Assembly: GCA_000004695.1 (NCBI GenBank)
Contig: CM000154.2
Span: 4,512,001 to 4,576,000 of the forward strand
Direction of reading: 5' to 3'
DNA length: 64,000 nucleotides
Origin: Dictyostelium discoideum
Lineage: Eukaryota
Within the stretch, counting starts at the first letter, position 1. Each line of letters begins with the position of its first letter. Positions 1 through 62,755 of this stretch are shown in pieces. Under the pieces are notes generated by a model. It was given only the letters and a program-made list of their open reading frames with translations. It ran no database searches and was not told where the DNA came from. A program made the position numbers and the translations under genes.

Positions 1-5670
<5,670 letters not shown>

Positions 5671-6186
5671 AATAAAAATTTAATAACATTTACTACCATT
5701 AATTTTTGTCTCTCGTGAATAATTTTTTTTTAACAACATTGTCAATGTTATTAGTGTTTATATGTAAAAAAAAATTATTCACCAATTTCAAAATCATTGG
5801 AGTTTTAAAAAGAACCTTTTTCATTAACATTTTAAAATAATAATAACCAAAAATACTATAAACAACAACCTCTATAATATTTTTTATTAATTTTTCTACT
5901 CAAATAACCATTATTTATTTAAATAATTATTATTAAAATATTTTAATTATAATTTAATCTAATTTATATTAACTTTTTAATAAAAAAAATAAAAAAAAAA
6001 TAAAAAAAAATTTTTATAATAAAAAATTAATATTAATTTAAAAATAAAGTAGTATTTTAACAAAAAGGATAATTGTTTTTTTTTAATTTAAAAAATTAAT
6101 AAAAAAAAGCGAAAATGCGTTTTTCACCTTGGGTTTAAAAACGCATGCTGGAATGGCTCATGTGGTTTTTTTATTTTAATTTCAAT

Positions 6187-9100
6187 AGACCCACACGTCT
6201 CAAAATCATTCACACAATTAGGTCTTTTAAGTTCAACAGGTAAATGTCATACATTTTCATCGGATGCTGATGGTTATGTTCGTTCAGAAGGTGTTGGTAT
6301 CGTTGTATTAAAGAGATTAAAAGATGCAATCAAAGATTCAAATAATATCTATTGTGTAATCAAAGGATCAAGTTCAAATATCGATGGTAACTTTGATAAA
6401 TTAAACTTTTATTCACCATCAAAATAATCAATATCAGATTCATTGATTTGACCATTGGTTGATTTGATTGCTAATTTGATGTGTGAAACTCATGGTACTG
6501 GTACTCCAACTGGTGATCCAATAGAATTAGAAGGTATATCAAGAGTTTTCAATAATACTAAAATACCATCAACAACAACAACAACAACAAATAATAATAA
6601 ACAAGTTTTAGTTGGATCAATTAAATCAAATATTGGACATCTTGAAGGTAAGTTTATTAATTAAAAATTAAGTCTATAAATAACCAAAGTCAATCATTAC
6701 TAACATTAAATATTGTTTATAATTAATAACAGCATGTTCAGGAGTTGCATCATTAATTAAATGTTGTTTAATGTTTAAAAATAAACTATTTCTTCAAAAT
6801 ATTAATTTCAAAGAACCAAATCCATTAATTAATTTTAAAGAATGGGGATTAAAAGTTGTCACTGAACCAATTAAATTTAATGAAAATAAATCAACTGTCA
6901 TGTTACTTAATAACTTTGGTATAACTGGTAAAAATATATAAATTTTATCTTTTTTTTTAAGTTTATAAAATAAATAATTAACATTATATCATTAATTTAG
7001 GTTCAAATGTTTGTTTAATATTATCTGAATTTAAAAATAATAATCATAATGACTATAGTAGTGGAGTCGAAATTAATGAAAGAAAGAAATATTTAATACC
7101 ACTCTCAAGTAATTCATCAACATCATTAAATAATTATAATTAAACATTCAAATTCAAATTCAACCTCATCATCGACAATAACAACAACAAGTTTCAAAGA
7201 ATACATAATCAAATTAAATTCAAATCAACATCATTAATTCAAAAATCAGTTATAATCGCAAGTGATTGGAATGAATTTCAAGATGAAAATAATCAAATCA
7301 AATTAAATAATAGTGATAATTTAATTTCAAATATTACAGTTGAAAAAAAGAAATCACCAATCACAGTAATTGTATTATGTGGTTAAGGTTCACAATATAA
7401 TAAAATGGCATTATCATTATATGATAACGAACCAGTATTTAGAGAATCTGTCAATAGATTCGATAAAGAGTTATTCAAATATTATGGTTATTCAGTTTTA
7501 GATAAATTAAGATCAATTGATGAAGATTTAATATCAATTCATCATCCAATTTTAGCACAACCTGCAAATGTTATCATTCAAGTATCACTTTATGAATTAT
7601 ATAAACATTGGGGTGTTTCAGCAGATATTATCATTGGTCATTCTCTTGGTGAAATATCATCGTCATATTGTTCAGGTATGATTGATTTTCAAACATTATG
7701 CTACTTGACTTACCATAGATCAGTAGCTCAAAATAGAACCATAGGTACAGGTAGAATGTTATCAGTTAATATTAGTTCAGATGAATTCATTAATAAATAT
7801 CAATCTACAACTAGATATAAATCATTAGAAATTGCATGTTACAATTCACCAACATCAATCGTTATCTCAGGTAAAGAAGACTTATTAAATGAAATTACCA
7901 AAGATTTCAAATCAAACGATATCTTTTGTTCAATGTTAGGATTATTATCATCATTTCATACATCAAGTCAACAAATGATTAAAGATGAAGTATGTTCATT
8001 AAATATTTCATCGAAACAACCATCGATAGCAGTATTTTCAACAGTTACAACCAGTTTATTCGATCATCAAACTTCACCGTTCAATGCAGGTTATGCATTT
8101 AATAATATTCGCCAACCAGTTCGTTTCACACAAACAATAACAAATCTTTACAAACATATCGAATCAAATGATATGGGTAATGAAATTACATTCATTGAAG
8201 TTTCACCACATCCAACATTACAATATTACTTAAATCAAATGAAATCAACTCAATCAAGTTACTTTAATAATGGTAAAAACATTACAATCTATTCACCATT
8301 AAATAAAAAGAAGAATGATTATAATGAATTCTTAAAGACAATCTCTTTATTATTTGTCAATAATAATTTTGATATTAATTTCAAATCACAATTAATTAAT
8401 AACAGTATTAACCATACAAACCAATCAAATAATTTACCACTTTACCAATGGGATGATAAAGAATACTTTAAACTAAACTCATCACTTGAAAAGATTAAAA
8501 ATGAAGGTCCATCCATTCACAGTCTTGGTAATAATACAGATTCACCATATCCATCATATCAAACATTTATCGATATCAAGAAATTACCATTCCAATGGTT
8601 AAAAGGTCATCAAGTTAGTGATAAATTCTATTATCCAGGAATGGGATATGTTCACAATTTATTATCAATTTATCCATATCAAGATATTACAATTAGCTCA
8701 TTAGAATTTAAATCACCATTATTATTAACAGAAGGTATTAATCAATGTTTACAAACTACAATTGCACCACTATCAAAGAATGAATTCAATATTAAAAGTC
8801 ATTATAAAGATCAAAAAACAAATCAATGGATATTATCATCTCTTGGTAATTTTAGTTTAACCAAACATAACAGTATCATCATCAACAAATTAATTAATAT
8901 TCAATCATTAAAAGATAAATGCAATTTTACAATCATTCCAAAACAAGATTTTTATGAAACTATTAGAATTAAAGCAAATTTAATATACAAAGGTTTATTT
9001 CAAGGTGTAAAACAATGTCATATCGGTAATAATTGTTCATTAGCAATAGTATCACTAAATGAAATTTATAATCAAAAAGAATATAATCATTTAATTAACA

Positions 9101-10268
9101 ATGGCAATATGAATACATTCTTTAATAGGGCAATTTTAGATACTTGTTTACATGGAGTTTTAGGTGGATTTACAAAACCAGTCGTACTTGATAGAATTGA
9201 AGCTTTCAAATTTTACTCTTCAAATATTCCATTATTAAATGAAAATGACAATAGCAATAATAATGGTATTGTTTTAGATATATTAAAATATTTGGTTAAA
9301 TATTCAAATGATTCAATTGAAAATATAATAATACTTTCAAAATCAAAACTAAAATGGGAATTAGAATTATTAATCAATCAAAGCAAATTTAAAAAAGATA
9401 ATAATATTAAATTCCATTTCTATCAAATCGATATTGAAGATTCAAATAAAGTTAATCAAGTATTAAATCAATTAGAATTAAATGAAAATATTACAAACAT
9501 TGATTCAATCATTCATTTTGCATTTATGAATGATATTGTGATGTTCAACAAATTGATATGAATCGTTTAAATAATACACATGGTGCTAAAACGATTGGAG
9601 CAATTAATCTTCACAATCAATCAATTAATTGTTCATGGAATATCAAACAATTTATAATGGCATCATCAGTAGTTTCAATATTTGGATCAGATCAACAATG
9701 TTGTTATGTTAGTGCATGCAATGTAATCGATTCATTATCAAAGTATAGACATTCAATTGGATTACCATCTTTAGCCATTAATTTAGGTGCGATATCGTCA
9801 ACTGGTTTCATATCACGTAATAATGCAATTGAAACAATGTTTCAGAGTTATTTTTTAAAAATATTCTCACCTCAACATGTTATTAGCTCATTAGATTTAT
9901 TCATTCAAAATCAACATCAATATCCAAATTATTGTGTATCAGATTTCGATTTTGAAATTTTACCATCAACTTTAACAAACCAATACCATTCAAAATTTGA
10001 TTTTGGAATTAAATATTTCGCTGGTGATAATAATAATGGAACTATTCACTCAACAATTTTAAATAAAATCAGTGAATTATTATCAATTGACGAATCTAAA
10101 ATCAATGAAGATTTACAACTCACACAATATGGTATGGATAGTTTAGTAATTGTACAATTAAAGAATTTTATCGATAATCAATTAGGTCATAATATTATCA
10201 CAATTCAACAATTACAAAATAATAAAATCAATCAATCAATTGAAATCATTAAATCAGCTCACAACAAA

Positions 10269-10314
<46 letters not shown>

Positions 10315-10346
10315 GCAATAATAATAGCAATAATGAACTGGTATAA
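6187..10346 (+). pseudogene. Decayed PKS pseudogene (A/B lineage): starts at KS exon-4 equivalent, AT, part of DH, internal deletion of distal DH-CMeT-ER, part of KR, ACP, poly-Asn, then ends; lacks R domain
   Basis: The sequence from 6187 (acccacacgtctcaaaatcattcac...) parallels PKS-B exon 4. It keeps B-lineage introns (6654.. and 6931..). Disabling lesions: (1) a 55-bp micro-inversion at about 6426-6480 relative to B, with an adjacent 17-bp deletion that creates TAA at 6427; (2) TAA at 7384 converts GQGSQ to G*GSQ; (3) a DH...NDNSNNN/GIVLDILKYL fusion at about 9245 removes about 5.5 kb; (4) a frameshift at about 9540. ORF-track pieces 6455..6664, 7405..9561 and 9558..10346 are its fragments. 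Confidence 0.85.
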
Positions 10347-10862
10347 AAATAAAATTTGTGACGAAAAAAAAAATAATAATTCAAATATTAATTTGGTTTC
10401 ACATAGTTGTAAACATAATTAATTTTGTTTTTTAAATAACCACTTTGGGCAATTTATTGTTTATTTCCTTTTATGGATTAAAACTGATATATCAAAAAAA
10501 ATGTTAGCTAAGTAAATATTAAATAAATATTTATTTAATAACAATAATAATAATAATAATAATGTTTAATTAATAATATTACATAATATAATTGAAAAAT
10601 CTTTTTATATTTAATTAATAAATGATTACATTTAATCTCTTTTTATAACTTTTTTTTTTTTTTTTCTATTTGATCTCTTTTTTTATTATAAATTAAATAT
10701 ATGAATGTTTAGTAGTTTGAAATCATAAAACAATTGGGAATTTTCCTATTGTGGTTGAGCATTACGATGTGCTAAAATCCTAAATTATCTATCGATACAA
10801 GATTCACTTAGTTTTTCAAGAATATGAAATATAAAATAATAACAAATGTAATTTTTTTTTAT

Positions 10863-12288
10863 TTAATGATTGTTAATGATATCATTAAAAATCATTGATT
10901 CATTAATTTCCCAATCCTGATGATTATATGAACCAATTGAAATTAATAATTCTTTTGTGCTATTTGACATTTTGAATAAACTATTGATTTTAAAGCTTGT
11001 TAATAATAAATTTTGATTTTTGTGAATGTGGAATGTTGAATATCTTTTTGATGATTTTCCATTTGATTTTGAAACTAATTCAATCCATTCATAGAAATCG
11101 ATTTCTTTACATTTAAAACTATTTTCTAATACCCTATAAAATGATTTCATTTCAATTGAATCACCATTAAAATTATAAATTGAAATTGGTTTTGATTTAT
11201 TTTGATTCCAACTGTTTTCATTGAATATTAAATCGATTGTGGTTTTAGCTATAGTTGTAACTGGAGTTGTGAAAACTGATTTATGAATATTTGGATAATA
11301 ACCAATCTCTTTCGAAGATTTTATTAAAAGTGATATAAAATCATTTGAATGACCTATACCTGTTATTGGATTTGAGAATATATCTATAATTAAAATAGCA
11401 ATGAAAATAGTTATTGGAATATTATATATAAATATATAAGGTTAATACTAAATTAATTGATTGGAATCAATATATATTAATATGCTACATACCAGGTGGT
11501 CTAATAATGATTGATGGTATACCTCTTGATTCTGCTGCGTTTGTTAATAATTTCTCTGAAATAACTTTAGATTGAACATATCCAATTGGCGTAGAATTAT
11601 AACTTGGAACTAAATTTGTTTCTTCGAAATCCTCTTCATCTTTAAAAGGATGATTAATGAATACTGCAAGTGATGAAAAATGAACTATTAATTTTTGTGA
11701 GCTATTATTTGAAACTGATAATTTTATAACTTGATTAACGTTGTTGACATTTACAGTTTTACTTTCTTCATAGTTTGATTTTAAATCTAAATCTGCTGCT
11801 GAATTTATAATAATATCACATTCATTTGATAGTTTTAAATAATCTTGTTCAGTTAAACCAAAATTATCTTTTGAAATATCACCAATCGTTGGAATGATTT
11901 TAATTAATTGATCTTCACTTATTTGGCTATTATTATCACTATTATCACCACTTTCAATATTACTATTTAATCTTTGATTTGGTGATCCTTTGTTCATATT
12001 AATTAATTGGTGTTTCTTTAAATTATTAATAATTACATCGATTGGATTTGTTAATTTTGAATTATTTCTTATTAAACAATAAATTTTTGAGATATTGTTC
12101 ATTTTAATTAATTCTGTTAATAAATATGCACCCAAGAATCCTGTTGAACCTGTTAAGAATATTGATTTACTATTATTATTATTATTTAATATATTTTTAA
12201 TTGAATATGGTCTTGAAATGATTGATTCATTTAATTTAGTTTCATTTTTAATAAATTCATCAAGTGATTGTTGTTCTTTTTTAACTAA

Positions 12289-12356
<68 letters not shown>

Positions 12357-15300
12357 GAGCCGATTTAATAATTTCAATTGATTGATTGATTTTATTATTT
12401 TGTAATTGTTGAATTGTGATAATATTATGACCTAATTGATTATCGATAAAATTCTTTAATTGTACAATCACTAAACTATCCATACCATATTGCGTGAGTT
12501 GAAGGTCTTCATTGATTTTAGATTCATCAATCGATAATAATTCACTTATTTTATTTAAAATTGTTGAACGAATAATTTCATTATTATCACCATTACCACC
12601 AGTGAAAGATTTCATTTGATTTGATTTTTTAACAATATTAATTTCAAAATCAAATTTTGAATGGTATTGATTTGTTAAAGTTGATGGTAAAACTTCAAAA
12701 TTGAAATCTGATAAACAGTAATTTGGATATTGATGTTGATTTTGAATGAATAAATCTAATGAACTAATTACGAGTTGAGGTGAGAATAAATTAAAAATTG
12801 AACTCTTAAACATTGTTTCAATTGCATTATTACGTGATACGAAACCAGTTGATGATATCGCACCTAAATTAATGGCTAAAGATGGTAATCCAATTGAATG
12901 TCTATACTTTGATAATGAATCGATAACACTACATGCACTAACATAACAACATTGTTGATCTGATCCAAATATTGAGACTACTGATGATGCCATTATAAAT
13001 TGTTTGATATTCCATGAACGATTAATTGATTGATTGTGAAGATTAATTGCTCCAATTGTTTTAGCACCATGTGTATTATTTAAACGATTCATATCGACTT
13101 GTTGAACATCACCAATATCATTCATAAATGCAAAATGAATGATTGAATCAATGTTTGTAATATTTTCATTTAATTCTAATTGATTTAATACTTGATTAAC
13201 TTTATTTGAATCTTCAATATCTATTTGATTGAAATGGAATTTAATATTATTATCTTTTTTAAATTTGCTTTGATTGATTAATAATTCTAATTCCCATTTT
13301 AATTTTGATTTTGAAAGTATTATTATATTTTCAATTGAATGGTTTGAATATTTAACCAAATATTTTAATATTTCTAAAACAATACCAGTTTGACCAGTGA
13401 GTAAAATATTTTTACCAATATTTAATTTTGAAATATCATATAAATGTTTCATTATGATATGATTGTTATTACTTTGATAATTATTATAAACTCTATTAAA
13501 TTCATCTTGATTATGATTAACAATGATTTTACCAATATGTTTTCTTTGATTTATATATTCAATTGCATCTTTAAATTGATTATTTGAATATTCAATGATT
13601 GGTACACTTAACTCTAATTTATTTGAATTAATCATTTTGATAATTTTCTTTAAATAGCTTTTGATTAATTTACTAGTGAAATCGACAACTTCTACATTAC
13701 TATATGTCATATTAAATTTGAAATGATTATTTGTCATATAATCATTTGGTGTGAGATGAGTGATACTTAAATCAACGATACGTCCTGATAAATTTAAACA
13801 TTGGAAATTTGAATCCATATACTCTGATGATAATGTATTTAATATTAAATCTACACCTTGTTGTTCAACTTCACCTAATTCCATTAATTTATTCTTTATA
13901 TCTTTGACATAGTTTTTATTACGAGATGAATAGATAGCAGTAATTAATGATCCATATTTCTTTATTAAGTATTCTTCTTTATCTTTTGAACTAACTGTTA
14001 AAAATATATAACCTTGATGTTGTTTACTTTTTAATAAATCTAAAGATGATATACCAATACCACCTGCTGCTGAATGAATTAAAATTGATTCATTTGATTT
14101 TAAATTACCAATACTGTAGATACTATGTAATGATGTAATATAAATAGATGGTATTGATGCTGAAACTGAATGGCTATAATTTAATGGTTTATAATAAATA
14201 GAAGTGAAATCTACAATAACATGTGAACTACTTGCTTTTGAACCAATACCACAAACTTGATCACCAACTTTAAATTTCTTTACATTATTACCTAATCTTG
14301 TAATAATACCACTAAAGTCATTACCAATGTTTGGATTATCAATACCAATACCATTTTCAATTTCATACTCTTTACCATACTTAATATCTAAATCTGAACC
14401 AATCATACCGATATACATTAAATAATCTTTATAATTTATACCAGTTGCCTTAACTTCTATCTCTACTTCATTTGAATTTAATTTAGCTTTTTTACTATAT
14501 AATTGATATTCTAAATTTGAATTTAATTGAATATATAAATTATCTTTATTGGTTTCAAATGATTTAGATTGGAATATACTTTTAATATTATTTGATCTTC
14601 TACAATATCTTTCATAGTATACTTTATTATTATTAATTGTAAATTCTTTTTGAATATTATTATTTGGATTGATTAAATAATTGATTAATGATAATTGTTG
14701 ATTATTTTCAATTGAAATATTATCATAATTTAAAGTTAATAAATCTAATTGTGGGAATTCAACGAAATAACGAGCAGCACCAATAATTGATGATGATAAA
14801 TAATTATCAGTGGTTGAATTTAATGATAATAATAAATGTTTGAAATTATTTGATAATTCTAATTTTAATATTAATTGATTAATTTGAATGTATTCAAATG
14901 TGATCTCTTTGAAATTAAAAGTATTCATTGTTGATTCAATTGATTTTAAAAATATTATTAATGTTTTATTACAATCATCTTTATTTTGATAATTTGTAAT
15001 CCATGATTGAAATTCATTGTAATTACTAATATTAACGATTTTGTGTTTTAATTCTTGATTTAATCTTATTAAATTTTGTATACTACTGCTGCAGATATCA
15101 TTTTTATAACTATTAATATTTCTAATATTATTACTGTTACTACTAAATAAAATAATGTTATTGAAAGAATTTAATTGATCTAATGATATTGATTGTTCTG
15201 AAATGATTTCATTAATTGTTGGTTTTCTAGTTTGAATTAAAAATACTAAATTATCATTACCAGACATTATTGTATCTCTATAATTACATTGATTTAAAAG

Positions 15301-16028
15301 GTTAATCCATTTCTCTTGTTTCATACAACATCTATCAGGTCTTAATTCGATATCACTATCAGAGGATGGCCACCATTGTGAAAAACAACCGAATATCGAA
15401 TCAAAATAAAATGATTTGTATGGTGGTTCTATAAATAAAAGTTGACCATTTGGTGTTAATATATTATGAATTTCATTTAATGTTGGTTTGAGTTTCTTAA
15501 CGACATGCATAACATTTGACATTACAACGAAATCATAATAGGATGCTTTAAGATCTTGATCTAATAATGGTTTCTCTAAGTCTAATACACGATAGATAAT
15601 ATTTAAATTGTTATGATTTGTAAATGATGAGAAATTTTCTTTAATTTCAGCGAAAAATGATGCAGATACATCACTCCATGTAAATTCTATATTAATGATT
15701 GATGTTGTACTATTATCGTTTAATAATTTACAAATCTTTTCTAAAATTAATAAACTAAGACTACCAGTACCGCCACCTGCTTCTAATATACGAAATACAA
15801 TTGGTTCATTTAAAATTGGTTTTAGAGTTTCAACTATAATTTCACTTAATAAATTATTTGATGGTTTAATTACATTTGAATTCTTATAAAATTCATCTAA
15901 ATAACCACTTTCAAATAATGATTGTGGTGTATCTGTAATGGAATCATCATCTTTTAATGGGAATAACTGTTTTGCCATTACTTTAGTTGCTCTAATATAT
16001 AAATTTTCATAATTATTATAACCATTAC

Positions 16029-16080
<52 letters not shown>

Positions 16081-19000
16081 TATATTAGGATTGTTTTGGA
16101 ATTTTTTTAAAACTTCAAAAATGAATTTGAAAAGATTTTCATTTGCTAGACTATTATCATAATATAATTGTTTAAATTGATCATATTCTAATGTTGTTAA
16201 TGATTCTAAATTGATACTTGGACATCTTTTATTAATGTGTTTATAAAATAATGATGGTAATAATCCCTTTGAAATGAATCGATTTCCTTCTTCTTTGACA
16301 CTAAATTCATCTACTCTATATAAATGTTTGAATTGTTCAGGTTTATTGATCATAGAATCTTTTGATTGAAGATATGGTGTATAAATTTCATTTGATGGTG
16401 GTTTACAAATTATAGTACTATCAGGATTGGAGCCAACAATAGTGCAAACTACATTTCCAATATCAACTAATAATGTACCATTTGGAAGTATGATTTTAAT
16501 TGATCCTGAATATGTTTGAGAATTGGTTCTTGCTCTAATTTCAGAGTAAACATATAATTCTTTAATTGTATCATTATTATTGCTATTGTTGTTATTATTA
16601 AATGATGGATAATTTGAAGAGTAAAATTTGAAAGCTTCAATTCTATCAAGTACGATTGGTTGTGTAACTGCAACCAATACTCCATGTAAACAAGTATCTA
16701 AAATTGCTGTATTAAAAAATGTATCCATAATACTATTGTTCAATAAATGATTATATTCTTTTTGATTATAAATTTCATTTAATGATACTATTGTCAATGA
16801 ACAATTACTACCGATATGACATTGTTTTACACCTTGAAATAAACCTTTGTATGTTAAATTTGTTTTAATTCTAATAGTTTCATATAAATCTTGTTTTGAT
16901 ATGCTTGTAAAATTACATTTATCTTTTAATGATTGAATATTAATTGGTTCATTATTTTCAATATTATGTTTGGTTAAACTAAAATTACCAAGAGATGATA
17001 ATATCCATTGATTTGTTTTTTGATCTTTATAATGACTTTTAATATTGAATTCATTCTTTGATAGTGGTGCAATTGTAGTTTGTAAACATTGATTATTACC
17101 TTCTGTTAATACCAATGGTGATTTAAATTCTAATGAGCCAATTGTAATATCTTGATTTGGATAAATTGATAATAAATTGAGAACATATCCCATTCCTGGA
17201 TAATAGAATTTATCACTAACTTGATGACCTTTTAACCATTGGAATGGTAATTTCTTGATATCGATAAATGTTTGATATGATGGATATGGTGAATCTGTAT
17301 TATTACCAAGACTATGAATGGATGGACCTTCATTTTTAATCTTTTCATGAAACGAATTAATTTTAAAGTATTCTTTATCATCCCATTGGTAAAGTGGTAA
17401 ATTATTCAATTGATTTGTATTGTTATTATTGATTAATTGTGATTTGAAATTAATATCAAAATTATTATTGACATATAATAAAGAGATTGTCTTTAAGAAT
17501 TCATTATAATCATTCTTCTTTTTATTTAATGGTGAATAGATTGTAATGTTTTTACCATTATTAAAGTAACTTGATTGAGTTGATTTCATTTGATTTAAGT
17601 AATATTGTAATGTTGGATGTGGTGAAACTTCAATGAATGTAATTTCATTACCCATATCATTTGATTCGATATGTTTGTAAAGATTTGTAATTGTTTGTGT
17701 GAAACGAACTGGTTGGCGAATATTATTAAATACATAATCTGCATTGAATGGTGAGCTTTGATGATTGAATAAATTGGTTGTAACTGTTGAAAATACTGCT
17801 ATCGATGGTTGTTTCGATGAAATATTTAATGAACATACTTCATCTTTAATCATTTGTTGACTTGATGTATGAAATGATGATAATAATCCTAACATTGTAC
17901 AAAAGATATCATTTGATTTGAATTCATTGGTAATTTCATTTAATAAGTCTTCATTACCTGAGATAACGATCGATGTTGGTGAATTGTAACATGCAATTTC
18001 TAATGATTCATATTTAGTTGTAGATTGATATTTATTAATGAATTCATCTGAACTAATATTAACTGATAACATTCTACCTGTACCTATGGTTCTATTTTGA
18101 GCTACTGATCTATGGTAAGTCAAGTAGCATAATGTTTGAAAATCAATTATACCTGAACAATATGACGATGATATTTCACCAAGAGAATGACCAATGATAA
18201 TATCTGCTGAAACACCCCAATGTTTATATAATTCATAAAGTGATACTTGAATGATAACATTTGCAGGTTGTGCTAAAATTGGTTGATGAATTGATATTAA
18301 ATCTTTATCATCAATTGATCTTAATTTATCTAAAACTGAATAACCATAATATTTGAATAACTCTTTATCGAATCTATTGACAGATTCTCTAAATATTGGT
18401 TCATTATCATATAATGACGATGCCATTTTATTATATTGTGAACCTTGACCACATAATACCATTACTGTGATTGGCGATTTCTTTTTTTCAACTGTAATAT
18501 TTGAAATTAAATTATCACTATTTTCTAATTTGATTTGATTATTTTCATCTTGAAATTCATTCCAATCACTTGCGATTATAACTGATTTTTGAATTAATGA
18601 TGTTGATTTGAATTTAATTTGATTATGTACAAATTCTTTAAAACTTGTTGTGGTTGATGATGAATTTGAATGTTTAATTATTGATGATTTATAATTATTT
18701 AATGATGTTGATGAATTACTTGAGAGTGGTATTAAATATTTCTTTTTTTCATTAAATTTATTATCAATTTTGATTTTGTGATAACTATTACTTTTATTAT
18801 AACTAAATTGATTACCATAAAATTCAGATAATATTAAACAAACATTTGAACCTAAATAAAAAACATTATTAAAATATTAATTATTTATTTTATAATAATA
18901 AAATATAATGATATATATTTACCTGTAACACCGAAATTATTAAGTAACATGACAGTTGATTTATTTTCATTAAATTTAATTGGTTCAGTGACAACTTTTA

Positions 19001-20622
19001 ATCCCCATTCTTTAAAATTAATTAATGGATTTGGTTCTTTGAAATTAATATTTTGAAGAAATAGTTTATTTTTAAACATTAAACAACATTTAATTAATGA
19101 TGCAACTCCTGAACATGCTATTATTATTTATTATTATTATTATTATAGATAATATTTAATGTTAGTAGTTAATAATTGACTATAGTTATTTATATTTAAT
19201 TAAATTTAATTAACTTACCTTCAGTATGTCCAATATTTGATTTAATTGATCCAACTAAAACTTGTTTGTTATTATTTATTAATGTAGTTGTTGACGCTTT
19301 ATTATTGAAAACTCTTGATATACCTTCTAATTCTATTGGATCACCAGTTGGAGTACCAGTACCATGAGTTTCACAATAATCAATATCAGATTCATTGATT
19401 TGACCATTGGTTGATTTGATTGCTAATTTGATATTTTCATACTGAGATGATTTTGATGGTGAATAAAAGTTTAATTTATCAAAGTTACCATCGATATTTG
19501 AATTTGATCCTTTGATTACACAATAGATGTTATTTGAATCTTTGATTGCATCTTTTAATTTCTTTAATACAACGATACCAACACCTTCTGAACGAACATA
19601 ACCATCAGCATCCGATGAAAATGTATGACATCTACCTGTTGGACTTAGCATATCTAATTTTGTGAATGATTTTGAAATGTGTGGGTCTTTGAATAAATAA
19701 ATAAAATATCAAATTAATATCTTTTTTTTTTTTTTTTTTTTTTTTTTATCACATACCTAATATAAAATTAACACCACCAACAATTGAAACATTTGATTTA
19801 TTTGATTTAATTGAATTATATCCACAATTAATTGCATTTGACGAACTTGAACAAGCTGTATCAATTGTTAAATTTTCACCTCTATTTTTTAAAATTAATA
19901 TAATAGTTAAAATTATAGTTGTGGTAAAAGAAAAGATAAATCAAAAACATACCTAAAATCAAAGCAATAACCAATTCTATTTGCAATAGAATGAGTTGTG
20001 GAACCAAAAATATTATTTTGAGTTTCCAATGGTGATCTTTGAAGATCATTATAATCAATAGTACTACTACCAATAAATGTACTTGTATTGGTACCACGTA
20101 AACTAATTGGATCAATACCACTATCTTCTAATGCTTCCCATACACCTGTTTGTTGATTTTATTTTAAAAATATAATTAATAAATAAATAAATATAAATAT
20201 CTAAATTTTTTGTGGAAAAGTTCAAAAACACTTAATAAATACATACATTTTAATAATAATCTTTGTTGTGGATCTATTGAACTGACATTATCATTGCTTG
20301 GATTAATTGCAAAGAAGATTGGATCAAATTGTTTCCATTCATCAAGTGGAAGTAAACCAGCAAACTTTGAAACGATTTCACCATTTAAATAATAATTATC
20401 AGACCATCTTTCAGAAGTTGTAACGATTCCATCCAATCCATTCAATAATTCATTAAATAATTGATTTGGTTTTGAAATTGATTCTTTTAAATTACCACTT
20501 GGAAATCTTAAACCAATACCAATCACTGCAACATCACCACTACCATCAACATCATCATAATCATTTCTATCCCTTATTAATTTATTATTATAAGTGCTAT
20601 TATTGTGAATATTTTCTGTCAT
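10863..20622 (-). CDS. Type I reducing polyketide synthase PKS-B, complete (KS-AT-DH-CMeT-ER-KR-ACP-R), 7 exons: complement(join(10863..11383,11493..18851,18923..19117,19219..19686,19757..19881,19953..20145,20247..20622)), about 3078 aa
   Basis: ATG at 20622 (MTENIHNN...), then [17 protein letters not shown] motifs: DTACSSS (exon 3), [14 protein letters not shown] and NIGHTEG (exon 4). AT: GQGSQ and GHSLGE. DH: [11 protein letters not shown]. CMeT: [14 protein letters not shown]: [11 protein letters not shown]: GMDSL. R: [14 protein letters not shown] and YVQSK. All introns are GTATGT/GTAAGT..AG, 71-109 bp. Exon lengths sum to 9237 nt (3079 codons) with consistent phases. The terminal exon 10863..11383 is colinear with PKS-A exon 2. 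Confidence 0.85.
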
Positions 20623-22535: not shown

Positions 22536-24338
22536 TTAATTACGTTTTATGAATAAGGCATCAAAAGGTTTACATTGCATTGCCAAACCAACTTCTCCTT
22601 CAACATCAATTGGAATATCAGTTGGATTGACTATTTTAAAATTCTTTAACATTATCACCAAAAATGTAAAAGTCAAAGATTCTGTAAATCTTCCTCCTGG
22701 ACAACCTCTAGGTCCTGTTTTAAAAAAAATAATAATGATGATTATTATTATTATTATTATTATTATAAATTAGTTGTAAATTAAAAAAAAAAAAAATAGT
22801 GGTAAATTTTAATTCCTTTTTAAAATGGTATCAAAACATACCTGCACCAAAATGAAAAAGTCCTTTTTGATATAAAGGTTGATTTTTAAATCTTTCTGGT
22901 TTAAATTCTAAAGCATCTTCACCCCAAAACTCTTTTGATAAATGTGTACCACGAAGATTTTTAATTATCATTGTACCTTTTGCAATTTTATATCCATTTA
23001 CTTCAACATCTTCTGTTGTTTTATTCGGTTCAGTTATTGGTACTGAAGAATTATATCTATATGATTCTATTATTCAAATTAATACAAAATTTATTTTTTG
23101 AAAAAATATATCAACACATATTAATACCAATATATATATATATATGGATAATTACCATTCATTACAGAAATAATATATGGATATTTTGTATGATCAGCAA
23201 ATGATATATTATTTGTATTATTATTTTCATCATTTCTCATGATTTCTTCATATATTTTATCTTGAATTTCAGGTTTATTAATTAATTGACCAATTAAAAG
23301 ACTAAACCCATTGGATGTTGAATCAACTGCTGCAAAAATAATATCAGAAATTGAAAACAAGATTGAATCATAATGAATTGAACCATCTAAATAATTTTTA
23401 TAATAATTCTCAATAATTGGAATATTGTTTAGTTTTGAAGATGTTTCATCAGTAGTTTCATTTTTCAATTCATTTTCTTTTTCATATTTAATTTTAATAG
23501 CATCAAGTTTTATACCTATAAAATCTTTTAAAAAAAAGTAACTAGAAATAATATCATTCTTTGACATTGATTTTATATCTAATGGAAATAAAAATGGTAA
23601 ATAATCAGAGTAAATTAATAATCCAGCAGCTTCAAAAATGCATTTAATCTTTTCTACAATGATTAGAATGGTTTCATCATTCTCTTCAATTCCTAATGTG
23701 AAATTTAATATTAATTTAACAGCAAGAATCCTAATTTGATTTGGTGTATTTTTAACAAGAGTTTCTTTATTATCTTTACAAAGATTACTAAACATTTCTA
23801 AAATAAATTTATTTGATTCTAATCTGCCATTATTTAACTTTCTTGTTGTAATTTCACTTGTAAGAATTCCTCTTAGAACATAATGATAATCACCATTTGA
23901 AGAAATAATGTTATAATCTTTACCAAAAAATCTTGAGAATTTAATATATCTTTCTTTGAAAATTTCTCTATGTTTTTTATTAAAACATTCATCAATAACT
24001 TCAGGCCCTGTTAGAACAACAATTTCAACACTACCCAATCTTAATCTAAAAACTTTGCCATATCTTTCATAGAAATCATTTACACTTTTTGGGAAATCTT
24101 TTGCGTTAATTTGTAATAAATTACCAAAAACTGGAATTGTAGAAGGACCAGGTATTAATTTATTAATTTTTTTAATCCTACCTTCAAATAATAAATCCTA
24201 TTTAAAAAAATAAAAGTATAAGTAAGTGTTTAATTTTTAATAATCAATAATATATATAATATTTTAAAATTTTACTTTTAATATTAATGATAATACTAAT
24301 ATTGTAATTGTTAAAATAATTGTAAATATTGTATTCAT
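22536..24338 (-). CDS. Cytochrome P450 monooxygenase, 4 exons: complement(join(22536..22714,22842..23066,23156..24197,24276..24338)), about 502 aa
   Basis: Minus-strand ATG at 24338 opens a hydrophobic N-terminus (MNTIFTIILTITILVLSLILK), then a Pro hinge (IPGPSTIPVFGNL) after a 78-bp intron. Exon 2 (ORF 23121..24038) has the I-helix AAVDSTS. Exon 3 has ESYR (ExxR) and FKPERF. Heme-binding FHFGAG|PRGCPG is split by a 127-bp intron between exons 3 and 4. Stop is TAA at 22536-22538. Phases are consistent (63+1042+225+179 = 1509 nt). Confidence 0.85.
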
Positions 24339-24584
24339 TGTAATATTATAAAATATTTTAATTGAGAATCTTTTATATTAAAGTTTTTATATTAAAAAAA
24401 AAACTATTTAAATTATAAAATAAAAAAAACCAATAATGTTTTTGTTAAAAACAAATTGATATATTTAAATTTTGGGGAAGTGGGTTAAAATAATTAATTA
24501 TAAAAAAAAAAAAAACCACCAAATTTTTTTTTTTTTTTTCTTTATTAATAATTAAAAAACTTTTTTTATTTCTAAAAACGAACT

Positions 24585-24722
24585 TGAAAACAGTTTAGAA
24601 AACAGTTTTTAATTTATTTTTTGAAACTGTTTAATTTTATTTTATTTTAATTTTAAAAAAAAAACCAAAATAAAAAAATGACCATTGTACCTTTTGTAAT
24701 ATACTTCAATAAACTGTTTTTT
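24585..24722. promoter_or_regulatory. Cluster of four AAACNGTTT palindromic motifs about 250-380 bp upstream of the P450 start (candidate cis-regulatory sites)
   Basis: gaaaacagttt (about 24586), gaaaacagttttt (about 24598), gaaactgtttaa (about 24623), aataaactgtttt (about 24708). These stand out against otherwise featureless A/T runs. Confidence 0.35.
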
Positions 24723-25321
24723 TATTATTTAATTTTAAAAACAAAAATAAAAACAAAAATAAAAATAAAAATAATGAATTAAAAAAAAAAAAAAAAAAAG
24801 TTATAAGATATCTAATTAAGGGTGTAAAAATTTCAGCAATATTTTTTATTTTTATTAATTTTTTTCTGTAATAAATTCGTAAACATATAATAAAAAAGAG
24901 ATATCAAATAGAAACAAAAAAAATAAAAAAGTTTTAACATTTCAAAAAAAGAGAAGTTTAAAATTTAAGGGGGTAAAAAAAACATTTTTTTTTTTTTTTT
25001 TGTAAATTGACAAACACAAAAGCAAACTATACATTAAGTTAAATCTATTAAATAGTTTTTTATATAGAGTCTCGGGGAAATCACCAGATTTCAAAAAAAA
25101 AAATAAAAAAAAATAAAAAAAAACATAATTTTGGGTCAAATAAAAAACAAAAATTTTTTTTTTTATAGTGCGAATTAAAATTAATTATTTGTGTTGAAAG
25201 TAATATCCAAACAATCTAACCTTTTTTTTATTTTTATTTTTTTAATAACTATAAACGTCATCAAATTTTTTATTTAATTTTTTTTTTTATTTCTATAATA
25301 ATATCAAATTTATTTATTTTA

Positions 25322-25400
25322 TTTTATTCTATTTTATTCTATTTTATTCTATTTTATTGTATTTTATTTTATTTTATTTTATTTTATTTTATTTATTTGT
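25322..25400. repeat. (ATTTT / ATTTTATTCT)n microsatellite
   Basis: attttattctattttattct...attttattttattttatttt. Confidence 0.8.
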
Positions 25401-25477
25401 AAAAGAGAAAAGACACAAAATATAGATAATAATAATAAGGGATAGAAATGATGATGATGATGTTGATAGAAATGATG

Positions 25478-26840
25478 ATTTTTTTTTTTTTTTTTTTTTT
25501 GATATAAATAAACTATTGTAGTATGTTATTTTTATTTATTTATTTTAGGTTTTTTAGTTTTTGTGAATTTAAAATGGTATGTTATTTTAGATTAGGTAAT
25601 TAATAATTAATTGGTGGTGTAATTGTTGGAATTGGTTCATTAGTGTTTATGCTCCATTCTTTTTTAAATTTTTTGATTGTTTCGGACCATTGGGTTTCTT
25701 TTTGAGTTTTTGTGAGGTTGTTTTTAATTGAGTATTGGTTAAAGTTTGATAATGTTCTTGAATATTCCAATCTTATTAGCTTGTGCCATTTTGATTTTAA
25801 TATATCATAATCTAGTGTTGTGTTGTTTATTTGGTTGTTCCAATTATCAATTGATTGAGTTATATTGATGTCAAATAATGATTTGCATAACCATATCCAT
25901 ATTTGGTGAATAACTAATGAGATTATGTTCCAATATGCATGTGTTCTGACTAGATCAAGATTTGTGTTTATATAATTCCAGTTGAACCTGTATTTTTTAT
26001 ATTGTGCGTTTTCTGGAAAATGAAAATTAATATTGATAGTTGGATCTGGTTTAAATGCTTTGTTGTTTGTTTGTGGTTTATAAATGAGTGTGTATAATTT
26101 TGTTGTTTGGTTTTTTGTTAATGACCAGTTTTTGTTTCCATTGCAATTTTTATATATAAAATATTTTAATTTGTCGTGGTTTATGAAGTTGATTGTGTGC
26201 TGACAATTGAAAAACAAATGACCATAGGGATCATTATTCATTTCATTGTTGCAAATGGGGCAAACTTTGTTGTGTAGATGATTAATCGGAAGACATCTAG
26301 CATGGAATCTTTGCATTGTATCACGGCCTTTTGGATCTTTTAATTTTTGAATTTTGACAAAAAGTTGGTCGTATGTGTATTTCCATAATAGTTGTATTGA
26401 TTGTTGGTGCGAAGTAAGAAGTAGATCTGAATATTTCTTGCCAATATAGTCTTTTGATTTGCATTGGTGATTGTTGAGTATTGTCGAGTAGATTTCTTTG
26501 AGTGTTGGTGGTAGTGAAATATTATTTGTGTTTAATGTTTGAGAGGTTTGGTTTTTTGTTAATATTGGTTGTAGGGTTTGAACTTTATCTTTTAGATGTC
26601 CAATTTGAGTTGCATAGTTTTCCCATTCTTTTTTGATTTTTATAAGGTATGGAGAAGAGATTGATTTGTTGATGATTTGATCCATCCAACTTATCATGTA
26701 TATTGAATTGTTTGCAGATTTATGCTTTTGTAAAAATCTGTTGTATATCCAAATCTTTTGAGCAACTTGTCGTAATTGTATATTCCACATACCCCAACCA
26801 CCTTCTTTTAATGGTGTTTCAACAAATTGAAACAAATTGA
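25478..26840 (-). mobile_element. 5'-truncated non-LTR (LINE-like, possibly TRE-type) retrotransposon 3' fragment: ORF2 C-terminal region with CCHC motif, 3'UTR and poly(A)
   Basis: Minus ORF 25600..26835 (411 aa) lies in a locally GC-richer block. It contains CPICNNEMNNDPYGHLFFNC (C-x2-C-x10-H-x4-C), typical of non-LTR ORF2 C-termini. The + strand T23 run at 25478-25500 is a poly(A) tail about 100 nt after the stop. The ORF begins abruptly at about 26835, next to a short caaattgaaacaaattgaaaca direct repeat (26819-26840). Confidence 0.6.
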
Positions 26841-35639: not shown

Positions 35640-37120
35640 ATGAATAATTTTAAAAAATATAAATTTAATAGATAAAGGTGTTGCAATTGTTGGGGTGGGG
35701 TTCAGAATTCCTTCTGGTAATTATGAAAATTCAATTAGTTCACCAGATTATTAAATTTAATAATTTAAAGAATGGTTTTGATGGTGTTAGTAGTACATCA
35801 GAAAGATGGAGTGACAATTTTCATAAATTAGGTGAAATTAGTAGTCCAAATGCAGGTTTATTACCATTTAATGAATGCAAATCATTCGATCCATTATTTT
35901 TTGGTATTAATCCATCCGATGCTCATCAGATTGATCCTCAACAAAGATTATTATTAAAATGTACATGGGAAGTATTAGAAGATGCATCTATTGATCCAAT
36001 TTCAATTCGTGGTACAAATACTTCAGTTTTCATTGGTTCTTCAACTATCGATTATCAACTGTTTCGATTTTAATGGTCCATCATTTTCAATGCATGTTCA
36101 TCATCATTAAATGTTGTTTAATGTTTAAATATCAATGCTTTTTACCAAATATTCATTTCAAAAATCCAAATCCATTAATTAAATTCAATGAATGGAATTT
36201 AAAAGTTGTAACATCACCAATTCCATTCAACAAAAGAAATAATGAATTACCAGTTTCAATGATGATTAATAACTTTGGTTTAACAGGTTCAAATTGTTGT
36301 TTACTTTTAACAGAATATAAAAAACAAGATTATGAATCATATGAAACTATCTACAAAAATGATAATAGTAAAAATATATTAATACCATTTTCAGCAAATT
36401 CAACAAATTCATTAAATCAATACCAATCAAAATTTAAAAATATAAATAATAATCAATTCAATTTTATTGATTTTACCGCAAATCAAATTTATTCAAAATC
36501 AAATTATCTTTATCAAAGATCGGTTGTAATCGCAAGTAATTCAAATGAACTTTTTGAAAAAATTTTAAATAAAAAACAAATTCGAAATAAAAATTCAATC
36601 ATCTCAAATATGTCATTCAAAGGAAAGAATCCAATTACAATTTTTGTTTTTTCAGGTCAAGGATCACAATATCCTAAAATGGCTTTAGAATTATATAATA
36701 ATGAAGTAATCTTTAAAAAATCAATTGATTTAATCGATTCAAAATTATCAAAGTACTATGGTTATTCAGTATGGGAGAAGGTAAAAAAAATCAAAGATTA
36801 TGATACTACTTCCATTCATGATCCAACTATTGTACAACCAGCAGTGTGTATGTTTTCAGTATCATTATTTGAATTGTATTGCCATTGGGGAGTAAATCCA
36901 TCATTTATTCTTGGTCATAGTATTGGTGAAATTTCAACATTATATTGTTCTGGAATAATCGATTTAGATACATTTTATCACAGATCAATAGCACAAACTA
37001 AAACACACTGTAATGGTGGGCATCCACTGATATTGATATTAGGAAAAATAGATGTAGTATGTCTCAACAAAGTTGGTATCAATTATTAAATAACAGTAAT
37101 TATAAAGACATTGCAATGTG
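35640..37120 (+). pseudogene. Mosaic PKS pseudogene between PKS-C and PKS-D: promoter and 5' end copy, KS N-terminal fragment, deletion, KS C-terminus plus AT fragment, deletion, short CMeT fragment
   Basis: 35655-35700 duplicates the C and D 5' ends (aaatttaatagataaaggtgttgcaattgttggggtgggg). ORF-track fragments 35678..36073 and 36073..37089 read KS, AT ([22 protein letters not shown]) and a DIRKDRC...QQSW CMeT fragment in shifted frames. There are multiple indels and no intact frame. Confidence 0.8.
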
Positions 37121-47094: not shown

Positions 47095-48064
47095 TTAACC
47101 TCTTGAAATATCTCTACCGAAAACACTACTCTTTAACCAATCGAAAGAGACTAAAGCACGATTTCTAACACTTAAAAGTTTAGTGAAATATACACTTCTC
47201 CAGAGGTAATAAGTGATATAACCTTCAGAGACAGTTGTTGAATGATCACCTTTGAATTCAGCTACAGCTTGATGATCACCAACATAAGCTAAAGTACCCA
47301 TATGTTTATATTTAAATAATGGTTTCTCTTTGACGGCTTCCTCAAAGCTTTTATTTGAACCAGTGATTGAATTGAAAAGGTTTAATTTCTCTTGTTGTTT
47401 TTCTTTTTCCTCTTTATGTGCATCTGGATTCTCTCTCTTTTTAATGAGATCATTATTCATTTCCTCTGCCAATTGATTGAATAATCTGCCTAAATAACGA
47501 CCTTGTTGAGAAGCAACTTGAGCAGTTTGAGCCAATGGTTTTGATGGATTAATTGAAGCATCACCAATTGACCAAATTCCATCAGTACCAGCCACTCTGA
47601 AATAATCATCAACAACCAAACCTCTTCTATTGTTTTGAATATTTGGTCCGATCGATTGCATAATTTGAGTGGTAATCTTTCTTGGTGTATTACCGGTTGC
47701 CCATACTAATAAACCGTATGGATGAATTGATTCCTCTTTGGTTGTAGTATTCTTTACTGTAATCTCTTTCTCTCTAACTCCAACAACTGCTGTCTTTGTC
47801 CAAATCTTTGTATTGTTTGAACTTTGAAGACGTTTTTCAACATGATCAATAATCTTCTTATCAAAAATTGTTAAAATATGTGGAAGTGCTTCAACTAATG
47901 TAACATTAATTCTCTTTGCTAATGGATATGTTTTTAATAAATCTGATTGAAGGAAATCATTTAATTCTGCTGTAAATTCAACACCAGATGGACCTAAAAT
48001 AAAAATAAAAAAATAAAAAATAAAAAATAAAAAAATTTGAAAATTAAAAATGATTAGGACAGCG

Positions 48065-48098
<34 letters not shown>

Positions 48099-49055
48099 GG
48101 AAAAATATATAAATAAACTTACCACCACCAACTACAACGAAATTTAATAAACGATCAATTTCTTTTTCAGGTTGACCAGGATAAGAAGCAGTTTCAAGAC
48201 AATCAATAATTTTATCTCTAATGTTACGAGTATCATTAATTTCTTTTAAGAAACAAGCATTCTCTTTTACACCTGGAATACCAAAGGTTTGATTATCGGC
48301 ACCGACACCAACGATCAAATGATCATACTCTAATTCGAATTCTGAAACTTCACCTTTTACAGCACTATTATCATAACATTTAACCTTTTTAGAAACTGGA
48401 TCAACTGATAAACATTCTGCTTCATAAAAAGTTGCATCCTCTGCATCTGCTCTCTTACAATACTTTCTAATTGGTTCCATAATTGATCTAACTTCAACTG
48501 TACCTGTTGTACCACCAACTAATAATGGTGTAAATAAAAAGTAATTTCTTTTTTTTTTTTTTTAAATTTAAAATAAATTAGTAAATAAGATTAAAATAAA
48601 AATAAAATTAAATAATTTAATTACCTTGGTGAAATGATTGTAACATCAAATAAATCAGTATGTAATTTTCTTAAGAAACATAATGAACCCCAACCAGTAC
48701 CAAGAATGACAACTTTTGGTCTTTTCTTTCTTTCACTTTCTGGTAATCTAGTTCTAAATTTATCAGTGACTGAATCGAAATCATCATTAACCACCATATC
48801 AATTATCCAAAAACCACCTAAACCTGCTACTGCTAATCCACCCCAAAATGCAAATTTATTCATTTTCTTTTTTGGTTCTTGTTCTTTTTGTTGTTGTTGT
48901 TGTTGATTTTGTTCATTATTATTACTATTATCAGTTGATGTCGAAAATCTTTGTATAAATTGTGTTTGATTATTTTTACATGCGACAATACGATTTGTTG
49001 ACACTGTTTTAATTAATTGATTTTTATTAACTTTTGAAAATGCTCTTGAAATCAT
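47095..49055 (-). CDS. Alternative (type II, rotenone-insensitive) NADH dehydrogenase / NADH:ubiquinone oxidoreductase NDH-2, 3 exons: complement(join(47095..47993,48123..48547,48625..49055)), about 584 aa
   Basis: Exon 1 (ORF 48621..49055) carries an N-terminal presequence, then a hydrophobic FAFWGGLAVAGLGGFWII, then KVVILGTGWGSL (first GxGxxG) and TIISPR. After a 77-bp intron it continues NYFLFTPLLVGGTTGTVEVRSIMEPIR. The second dinucleotide fold VVVGGG|PSGVEFTAEL is split by a 129-bp intron that the ORF track reads through as KFIYIFF.... Stop at 47095. Confidence 0.85.
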
Positions 49056-50918: not shown

Positions 50919-51018
50919 NNNNNNNNNNNNNNNNNNNNNNNNNNNNNNNNNNNNNNNNNNNNNNNNNNNNNNNNNNNNNNNNNNNNNNNNNNNNNNNNNN
51001 NNNNNNNNNNNNNNNNNN
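50919..51018. other. Assembly gap (100 N)
   Basis: Run of n characters. It interrupts the 5' end of the following ORF. Confidence 1.
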
Positions 51019-51019
51019 A

Positions 51020-53731
<2,712 letters not shown>

Positions 53732-60698: not shown

Positions 60699-62755
<2,057 letters not shown>

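Follow-up and report, generated by a model that had tools for sequence, protein, structure and literature searches.

The window analysed here is a 64,000-nt stretch of the Dictyostelium discoideum genome (CM000154.2, positions 4,512,001-4,576,000; GCA_000004695.1), and coordinates are relative to it unless another record is named. The G+C content of the window was 22%, and CAA-type repeats and short AT-rich GT..AG introns were present. Its best matches in protein searches were D. discoideum polyketide synthase (PKS) proteins, including AX4 pks29, pks30 and DDB_G0290703. The first 21 kb comprised three elements: the 3′ part of one PKS gene (gene A), a PKS remnant (P) and a second PKS gene (gene B). 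The subject of this study is a short block inside P that stands in inverted orientation at its homologous position. Gene A lies on the + strand and ends at ~5691, and its own ketosynthase (KS) exon lies outside the window, 3.05 kb upstream of position 1; it was located in record L003 of another assembly described below. P occupies 6166-10346 on the + strand. Gene B (10878-20622, − strand) is an intact PKS gene with seven exons, as delimited by tblastn with AX4 pks30, and it was used as the proxy for the ancestral sequence throughout the comparison. The homology search with gene B returned neither its own protein nor any 100% match; therefore, genes A and B could not be assigned to named AX4 genes.

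P was copied from a type I PKS gene of ~3,075 aa and has lost its 5′ part as well as internal segments. The original prediction had placed a PKS pseudogene in the interval that separates gene A from gene B, and it was borne out by the BLASTN and tblastn segments and by the lesions. BLASTN aligned P 6166-9268 with gene B 19706-16569 at 91% identity, and a second match joined P 9264-10000 to gene B 13387-12650. According to tblastn with AX4 pks30, the equivalents of residues 229-1206 and 2266-2610 were kept, and those of residues 1207-2265 and 2611 to the end were absent. Exons 1-3, including the region of the KS active-site cysteine, were missing, and the homology began within intron 3 of gene B. 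Further lesions were two in-frame stops (7141 and 7384), and the frame is shifted near 9538. The introns and intron positions of the parent gene family were retained in P. Judged by homology that runs across the introns and by these disabling lesions, P is a non-processed pseudogene of a type I PKS. Its exon-4 equivalent (6189-6647, + strand) corresponds to the C-terminal half of the KS domain, with AG/GT splice signals conserved with gene B, and the only in-frame stops within it were the two located in or at the edge of the inverted block.

The inverted block is 55 nt long (6426-6480, + strand), and, as the original prediction had stated, it is exactly what results when the ancestral sense sequence ATCAAATTAGC...GATATTGATT is reverse-complemented (55/55, no mismatches). 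The 55-mer was found twice in the window without mismatch, at 6426-6480 and on the + strand at 19378-19432; the partner had earlier been placed at 19381-19435, which was off by 3. In gene B, this uninverted homologue is read on the − strand and encodes 18 residues just upstream of a 10-residue motif. None of 100 dinucleotide shuffles yielded a match to the 55-mer. When both strands were aligned, the block was identical to gene B at 55/55 positions in the inverted orientation versus 20/55 in the colinear one. The flanks were colinear with the minus strand of gene B: the left flank (6255-6425) agreed at 168/171 positions and the right flank (6482-6557) at 76/76, and the 300 nt around the block showed three substitutions and no further indel. 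At the protein level, tblastn aligned residues 229-384 of AX4 pks30 with P 6185-6649 on the + strand, excluding residues 314-333, which matched the opposite strand (6483-6424) at 95%. Because the block matched only when inverted, the flanks were colinear and the protein match changed strand, the inversion is real in the sequence and far beyond chance. In a colinear alignment, the same event appeared as a false cluster of ~35 mismatches and gaps.

Both junctions could be read. The colinear left flank stopped at 6425, and colinearity was back at 6482. The exact reverse-complement match was 58 nt (6423-6480) rather than 55 nt, because AAT at 6423-6425 (+ strand) belongs to the inverted copy and to the colinear left flank alike; the match reached 62 nt when one mismatch was allowed. 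This 3-nt microhomology lies within a 6/7 match between TCAAAAT (6419-6425) and TCACAAT. The 17 nt that had been predicted as missing beside the block, in sense CATCTCAGTATGAAAAT, were present in gene B (19433-19449, − strand) and in all other copies and absent from P. The lost piece ends in AAAAT, and the same 5 nt precede it; thus AAAAT direct repeats stand at its ends. At the right junction, a single filler G (6481, + strand) replaces the ancestral AT (gene B 19377-19376). G6481 is complementary to C6417, which gives a 9/10 inverted repeat (6417-6426 and 6472-6481) in the derived sequence. In total, 74 ancestral nt became 56, and the net change of −18 nt therefore kept the downstream frame with the KS catalytic His motif (C-E-T-H-G-T-G-T). 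The original prediction had described a clean footprint of a tiny inversion. The exact inverted block agreed with that description; G6481, which has no template, and the 17-nt loss, which may be a separate slippage, did not.

The uninverted order was observed in all 11 other copies of the KS exon, which came from four assemblies: gene B, gene A (in L003), three copies in L002, two in L005, two in L004 and two in L008. L002 and L005 belong to GCA_054859385.1, L004 to GCA_054883475.1 and L008 to GCA_054859355.1. All 11 copies read ...TCAAAAT CATCTCAGT(A/G)TGAAAAT ATCAAATT...GATATTGATT ATTGTGAAACT, that is, they shared the same ancestral junction sequence. Since all of them were uninverted, the ancestral junctions are known, and the inverted state in P is, as judged from the aligned copies, derived and unique among the 12 copies examined. 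A k-mer scan over ~615 kb of pairwise-aligned paralogue sequence detected no other in-place inverted segment of at least 16 nt, and all remaining matches in the scan were the same P site viewed from the other side. An orthologue of P in other strains was also sought: the protein clusters of the P open reading frames (ORFs) were singletons, and the homology search with the 718-aa ORF returned paralogues only. L005 and L008 contained paralogous copies only. A remnant in L002 (P0001), which has two pseudogene-like residues in common with P, was considered as an uninverted allele of P and rejected, for it is a separate remnant with different deletion breakpoints and 86-92% identity.

The KS exon itself (6255-6557 in P, 19300-19620 in gene B, and the homologues in L002-L008) was nearly invariant in nucleotide sequence, and the paralogues differed by 5-9% overall. 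Among eight copies, about six variable sites were found in 135 nt, and the 55-nt block carried no substitution in nine of the 11 uninverted copies. On this comparison, strong constraint and/or gene conversion among the KS-exon paralogues is suggested. The block was identical to several paralogues, and a paralogue was considered as the template of the inverted copy. This candidate was rejected: the inverted copy is found precisely where its homologue would stand, for which reason a local event is simpler and was favoured.

Such a configuration might also be an assembly or sequencing artefact, with no inversion in the organism, which we regard as very unlikely. The ACTFIT assembly (GCA_054883475.1), which encodes proteins identical to those of AX4, carries the identical inverted configuration in records L001 and L003, and these were 100.000% identical to window 1-19561 over 19.5 kb. 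That identity alone is not independent evidence, and the records could share data. Two ORFs with their start at or in the block (61 aa and 69 aa) were looked up for exact matches and gave no independent small contigs in public sequencing runs, which would also fit an artefact; the same look-ups with the window ORFs at 36073-37089 and 47095-48480 found nothing either. However, the window and ACTFIT are different assemblies, because they were not colinear beyond ~25 kb and, where another 20 kb was compared, 16-20 mismatches separated them. L004, the ACTFIT stretch expected to overlap window 38.8-64 kb, gave no 100% match. ACTFIT was taken as a de novo assembly of Nanopore reads with Illumina polishing, which is how AX2-214 was assembled (PMC12745789). 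Moreover, a precise 55-bp flip with a 17-bp loss in unique-enough sequence is not known as an artefact of Sanger or long-read assembly, and the junction homologies look biological. As far as the two records can tell, two different assemblies agree on the inversion.

The comparison of the two assemblies also delimited their contigs. Window 1-19561 corresponded to CM142511.1 (GCA_054883475.1) at 100%, and that chromosome also has pks29, pks30 and DDB_G0290703. Window 25519-50918 corresponded to JBTAPE010000001.1 of the same assembly at 99.87% and encodes AX4 DDB_G0295667 and DDB_G0271530. The join between the two ACTFIT contigs lies at window ~24840-25520, in AT-rich intergenic DNA after a poly-T run and with no N gap, and it is either a genuine rearrangement or the result of a mis-join on the side of one of the assemblies. 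A 100-N assembly gap was found at window 50919-51018; to the right of it, the ACTFIT contig was no longer followed (L006, 6 kb unmatched).

We propose that the scar in P is, with somewhat better than even confidence, a derived and selectively neutral micro-inversion in a dead PKS fragment that came from a single microhomology-guided, short-range template-switch episode during replication or repair synthesis. A nascent strand ending in ...TCAAAAT would have left its template, at a stalled fork or during repair synthesis. It would have annealed via AAT (6/7 nt) to ATTGTGA on the opposite strand, where 55 nt would have been copied backwards. The strand would then have returned to the original template 1-2 nt from the in-place resumption point, with one untemplated or misincorporated G added, and forward slippage between the AAAAT repeats in the same episode would have skipped the 17 nt. 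The microhomologies, the junction sequences and the inversion in its derived state are observed; the polymerase switch, its timing in one episode and the neutrality of the scar are what we infer. In the four-point model, TCAAAAT is followed by point 1 and, after a further 17 nt, by point 3; GATATTGATT ends at point 2, and a further 2 nt lead to point 4. The order 1<3<2<4 means that the fragment is inverted only and no repeat is created; the middle fragment was a 58/58 reverse complement, and the flanks were colinear (168/171 and 76/76). In human-chimp comparisons, 1-3-2-4 is the commonest class (45% of the events); it was attributed to inter-strand switching, for which 2-3 nt of identity is enough (PMC5453318).

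In an empirical null built from equivalent positions of gene B, the 6/7 inverted match of the left junction occurred at 0.6% of positions. For a 5-nt direct repeat such as the one that encloses the lost 17 nt the figure was 0.5%, and the two coincided at 7e-5, but these microhomology statistics are post hoc, which is one of several points that weigh against our proposal. G6481 matches neither template, so that one base is left without a template. The independence of the two assemblies that agree on the inversion is presumed. No intermediate allele and no P orthologue of another strain, by which the changes could be dated and ordered, was retrieved. The AAAAT direct repeat is the expected trace of an independent slippage deletion, and a one-episode origin is not demonstrated. 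Finally, template switching predicts the same product as break repair of the MMBIR type (break-induced replication mediated by microhomology), the mechanism proposed for human-chimp microinversions (PMC8755829).

The slippage trace bears directly on another explanation, namely that two or three independent mutations occurred in either order. These would be a 55-nt in-place micro-inversion, which could itself involve template switching or MMBIR at a short inverted repeat, an unrelated 17-nt slippage deletion and possibly a 1-nt change at the right junction. We consider this explanation possible but rather doubtful. A single switch and return covers every difference but G6481, and the AAAAT repeat points to one more step of slippage or to an event of its own. 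The AAAAT copies flanking the lost 17 nt (0.5% by chance) are a classical slippage signature, the rate of mutation by slippage is reported to be high in D. discoideum (PMC7466956), and 14 further indels were counted over 3.06 kb of P. With the 17 nt gone, the 6/7 repeat TCAAAAT/ATTGTGA would directly abut the 55-nt spacer, which is the substrate of a definite microinversion (PMC8755829). However, an independent indel would have to hit the boundary of the inversion exactly, with a chance of ~2-3% per boundary at the observed density. Both junctions are imperfect and adjacent, indels are sparse elsewhere in P, and the nearby 300 nt are almost unchanged. Because the chance of a boundary indel is comparable with that of a coincidental direct repeat, the one-episode and separate-deletion readings are inseparable.

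The same junctions could also be viewed as scars of end joining. In this case, a piece of DNA would have been cut out by two double-strand breaks ~55-75 bp apart and put back the other way round by non-homologous end joining; 17 nt and 2 nt would have been resected and one G added. Such scars are typical of end joining, as is the 0-3 nt of microhomology at the junctions. Two breaks so close together were deemed highly unlikely, however (PMC8755829), and the free fragment of ~55 bp would have to stay at the site and turn around. Nothing in such a process calls for the 6/7 inverted homology or the 5-nt direct repeat, so that both would be coincidence. Taken together, we consider break and rejoining unlikely.

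A hairpin-mediated origin, which had been suggested by the original prediction, was rejected. The ancestral 131 nt had a minimum free energy of −6.1 kcal/mol (z = +1.2), and 175 of 200 shuffles folded at least as well. Only the 6/7-nt inverted repeat flanks the unit, and its imperfect arms were not made perfect: the left TCAAAAT was unchanged, and the right arm was not ATTTTGA. Hairpin or cruciform mediation is not supported, because the ancestral sequence folds no better than the shuffles and the arms were unconverted.

In its present state, the block is flanked by the 9/10 inverted repeat at 6417-6426 and 6472-6481, the net change is in frame and an ATG was made at the junction. These features would also be compatible with a programmed, reversible DNA switch that controls the expression of the PKS fragment. 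This can be practically dismissed: a single orientation was present in both assemblies, no exact reversal is possible once the 17 nt are lost, the host gene is inactivated by several further defects, and the ~615 kb of aligned paralogue sequence held no other such segment.

The template-switch reading may be compared with known systems. The inversion in P resembles the four-point 1-3-2-4 template-switch mutations (Loytynoja & Goldman 2017, PMC5453318; Walker et al. 2021, PMC7954356) in being an in-place exact reverse complement. As in the events of PMC5453318, the flanks are colinear, no repeat is created, 2-3 nt of identity occurs at the switch points and a linear alignment shows a dense cluster of mismatches and gaps. 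It differs from that class in the fragment, which at 55-58 nt is long for it, in the 17 nt that were lost from point 1 to point 3 and are bounded by a direct repeat, and in the one untemplated base at the return junction. In addition, its ancestral state was taken from paralogues and not from a sister species.

The definite microinversions of PMC8755829 likewise involve a precisely copied segment with a short imperfect inverted repeat at its boundaries (6/7 nt in P), and the segment in P is also far below the DNA persistence length, which makes looping of the recombinase type implausible. Those microinversions are pure inversions of 17-33 nt, whereas the one in P is longer and comes with the 17-nt loss and the AT>G change. 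The class calls for perfect or near-perfect flanking repeats whose inner edges come within a few nt of both boundaries; in P, the right arm of the 6/7 repeat abuts the segment, and the left arm abuts it only after the 17-nt loss. Bacterial quasipalindrome-associated template-switch mutations (Ripley model; cited in PMC5453318) share the strand switch at a short inverted homology and a spacer that can be inverted; unlike them, the P site had no pre-existing long quasipalindrome and no ancestral hairpin propensity, and its arms are unconverted. The inversion in P is thus a new example of a known mutational class and not different in kind.

P also resembles the other remnants of Dictyostelium PKS clusters: it is non-processed, it lies in a tandem or inverted PKS array, and it was split into small models by gene predictors. 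Similar remnants were found in other strains (L002 10001-14281; L005 4697-9015; L008 1000-11096). In contrast to these remnants and to the PKS genes, P alone of the 12 copies examined has an inverted segment.

The inversion had several consequences for the reading frame. A TAA had been predicted to result from it, and an in-frame TAA was indeed found at 6425-6427 (+ strand), straddling the left junction, with a second in-frame stop, TGA, at 6449-6451 (+ strand) inside the block. At the right junction, AT of the block and the filler G made an ATG (6479-6481, + strand). This ATG is the start of the 168-aa gene model ACTFIT_001646 (P0021, MCETHGTGT...; position 9075 of L001 equals window 6479). 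The ab initio annotation of ACTFIT cut P into three hypothetical proteins, ACTFIT_001646 to ACTFIT_001648, at window 6479-7143, 7405-9561 and ~9657-10346 (L001 9075-12942). Thus, the junction-created ATG misled the ab initio predictor into a spurious separate gene model. Within its exon, the inversion was the sole ORF-breaking change in P. As the sole inactivating lesion of P it was rejected, in view of the loss of exons 1-3 and two large segments, the further stops and the frameshift. Since P carries several other lethal defects, the simplest view of the inversion is that of a neutral scar in a fragment that is dead anyway.

Broken PKS genes were not restricted to P. Besides the remnant at L002 10001-14281, PKS remnants or broken genes were detected at L005 4697-9015 and 21189-23075, at L008 1000-11096 and at window 36073-37089. 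They showed differing deletion breakpoints, or were genes of intact length cut into 2-5 gene models. Pseudogenisation seems to be frequent and independent in the PKS arrays of several strains. The syntenic pks30 genes of ACTFIT and ACTFIR (L004 versus L005) were ~95% identical in DNA sequence, and in ACTFIR the gene between the cytochrome P450 gene and pks30 (AX4 DDB_G0290703) was reduced to two fragments of 841 and 331 aa. The PKS cluster is fast-evolving between D. discoideum isolates.

Beside gene B, a cytochrome-P450-like gene at window 22797-24838 was 97% identical to L004 7043-9096; this L004 counterpart sits between a pks32-like gene and DDB_G0290703 in ACTFIT. L008 (OT3A) contained two tandem P450 copies. 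PKS-P450 units appear to be duplicated jointly. Long CAA/AAC-type trinucleotide tracts were present in coding regions (335-425, 4084-4214, 16003-16087, 51786-52004, 53446-53558, 61964-62078 and many more). These tracts, which are typical of Dictyostelium, cross-matched across the window and swamped the BLAST output.

In the literature searched, no paper tied Dictyostelium to template switching or microinversion; the Dictyostelium hits were mutation-accumulation and microsatellite studies, and no sub-100-bp event of the MMBIR or FoSTeS type (in FoSTeS, a fork stalls and the template is switched) was found for amoebozoans. The inversion in P may be the first documented case in Dictyostelium, and this is a weak claim. 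A more far-reaching interpretation is that the scar records multi-step, microhomology-guided switching of the FoSTeS/MMBIR type at a sub-100-bp scale in an amoebozoan, with the frame kept and a new ATG made by chance. We give it very little credence. If it were true and the ATG were used, P could express a truncated KS-C/AT protein (ACTFIT_001646, ACTFIT_001647) from a de novo start.

The biological consequence of the inversion is small, because it lies in a fragment of a dead gene. What gives it value is its unusual cleanness and length (55-58 nt) for a micro-inversion, together with the 11 paralogous copies that fix the ancestral state, and it is because of these paralogues that both junctions are readable to the base. 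A practical lesson is that linear aligners turn a micro-inversion into a false cluster of mutations. Scars attributable to short-range strand switching occur in the AT-rich Dictyostelium genome, and the large arrays of PKS paralogues could act as internal references for finding more of them.

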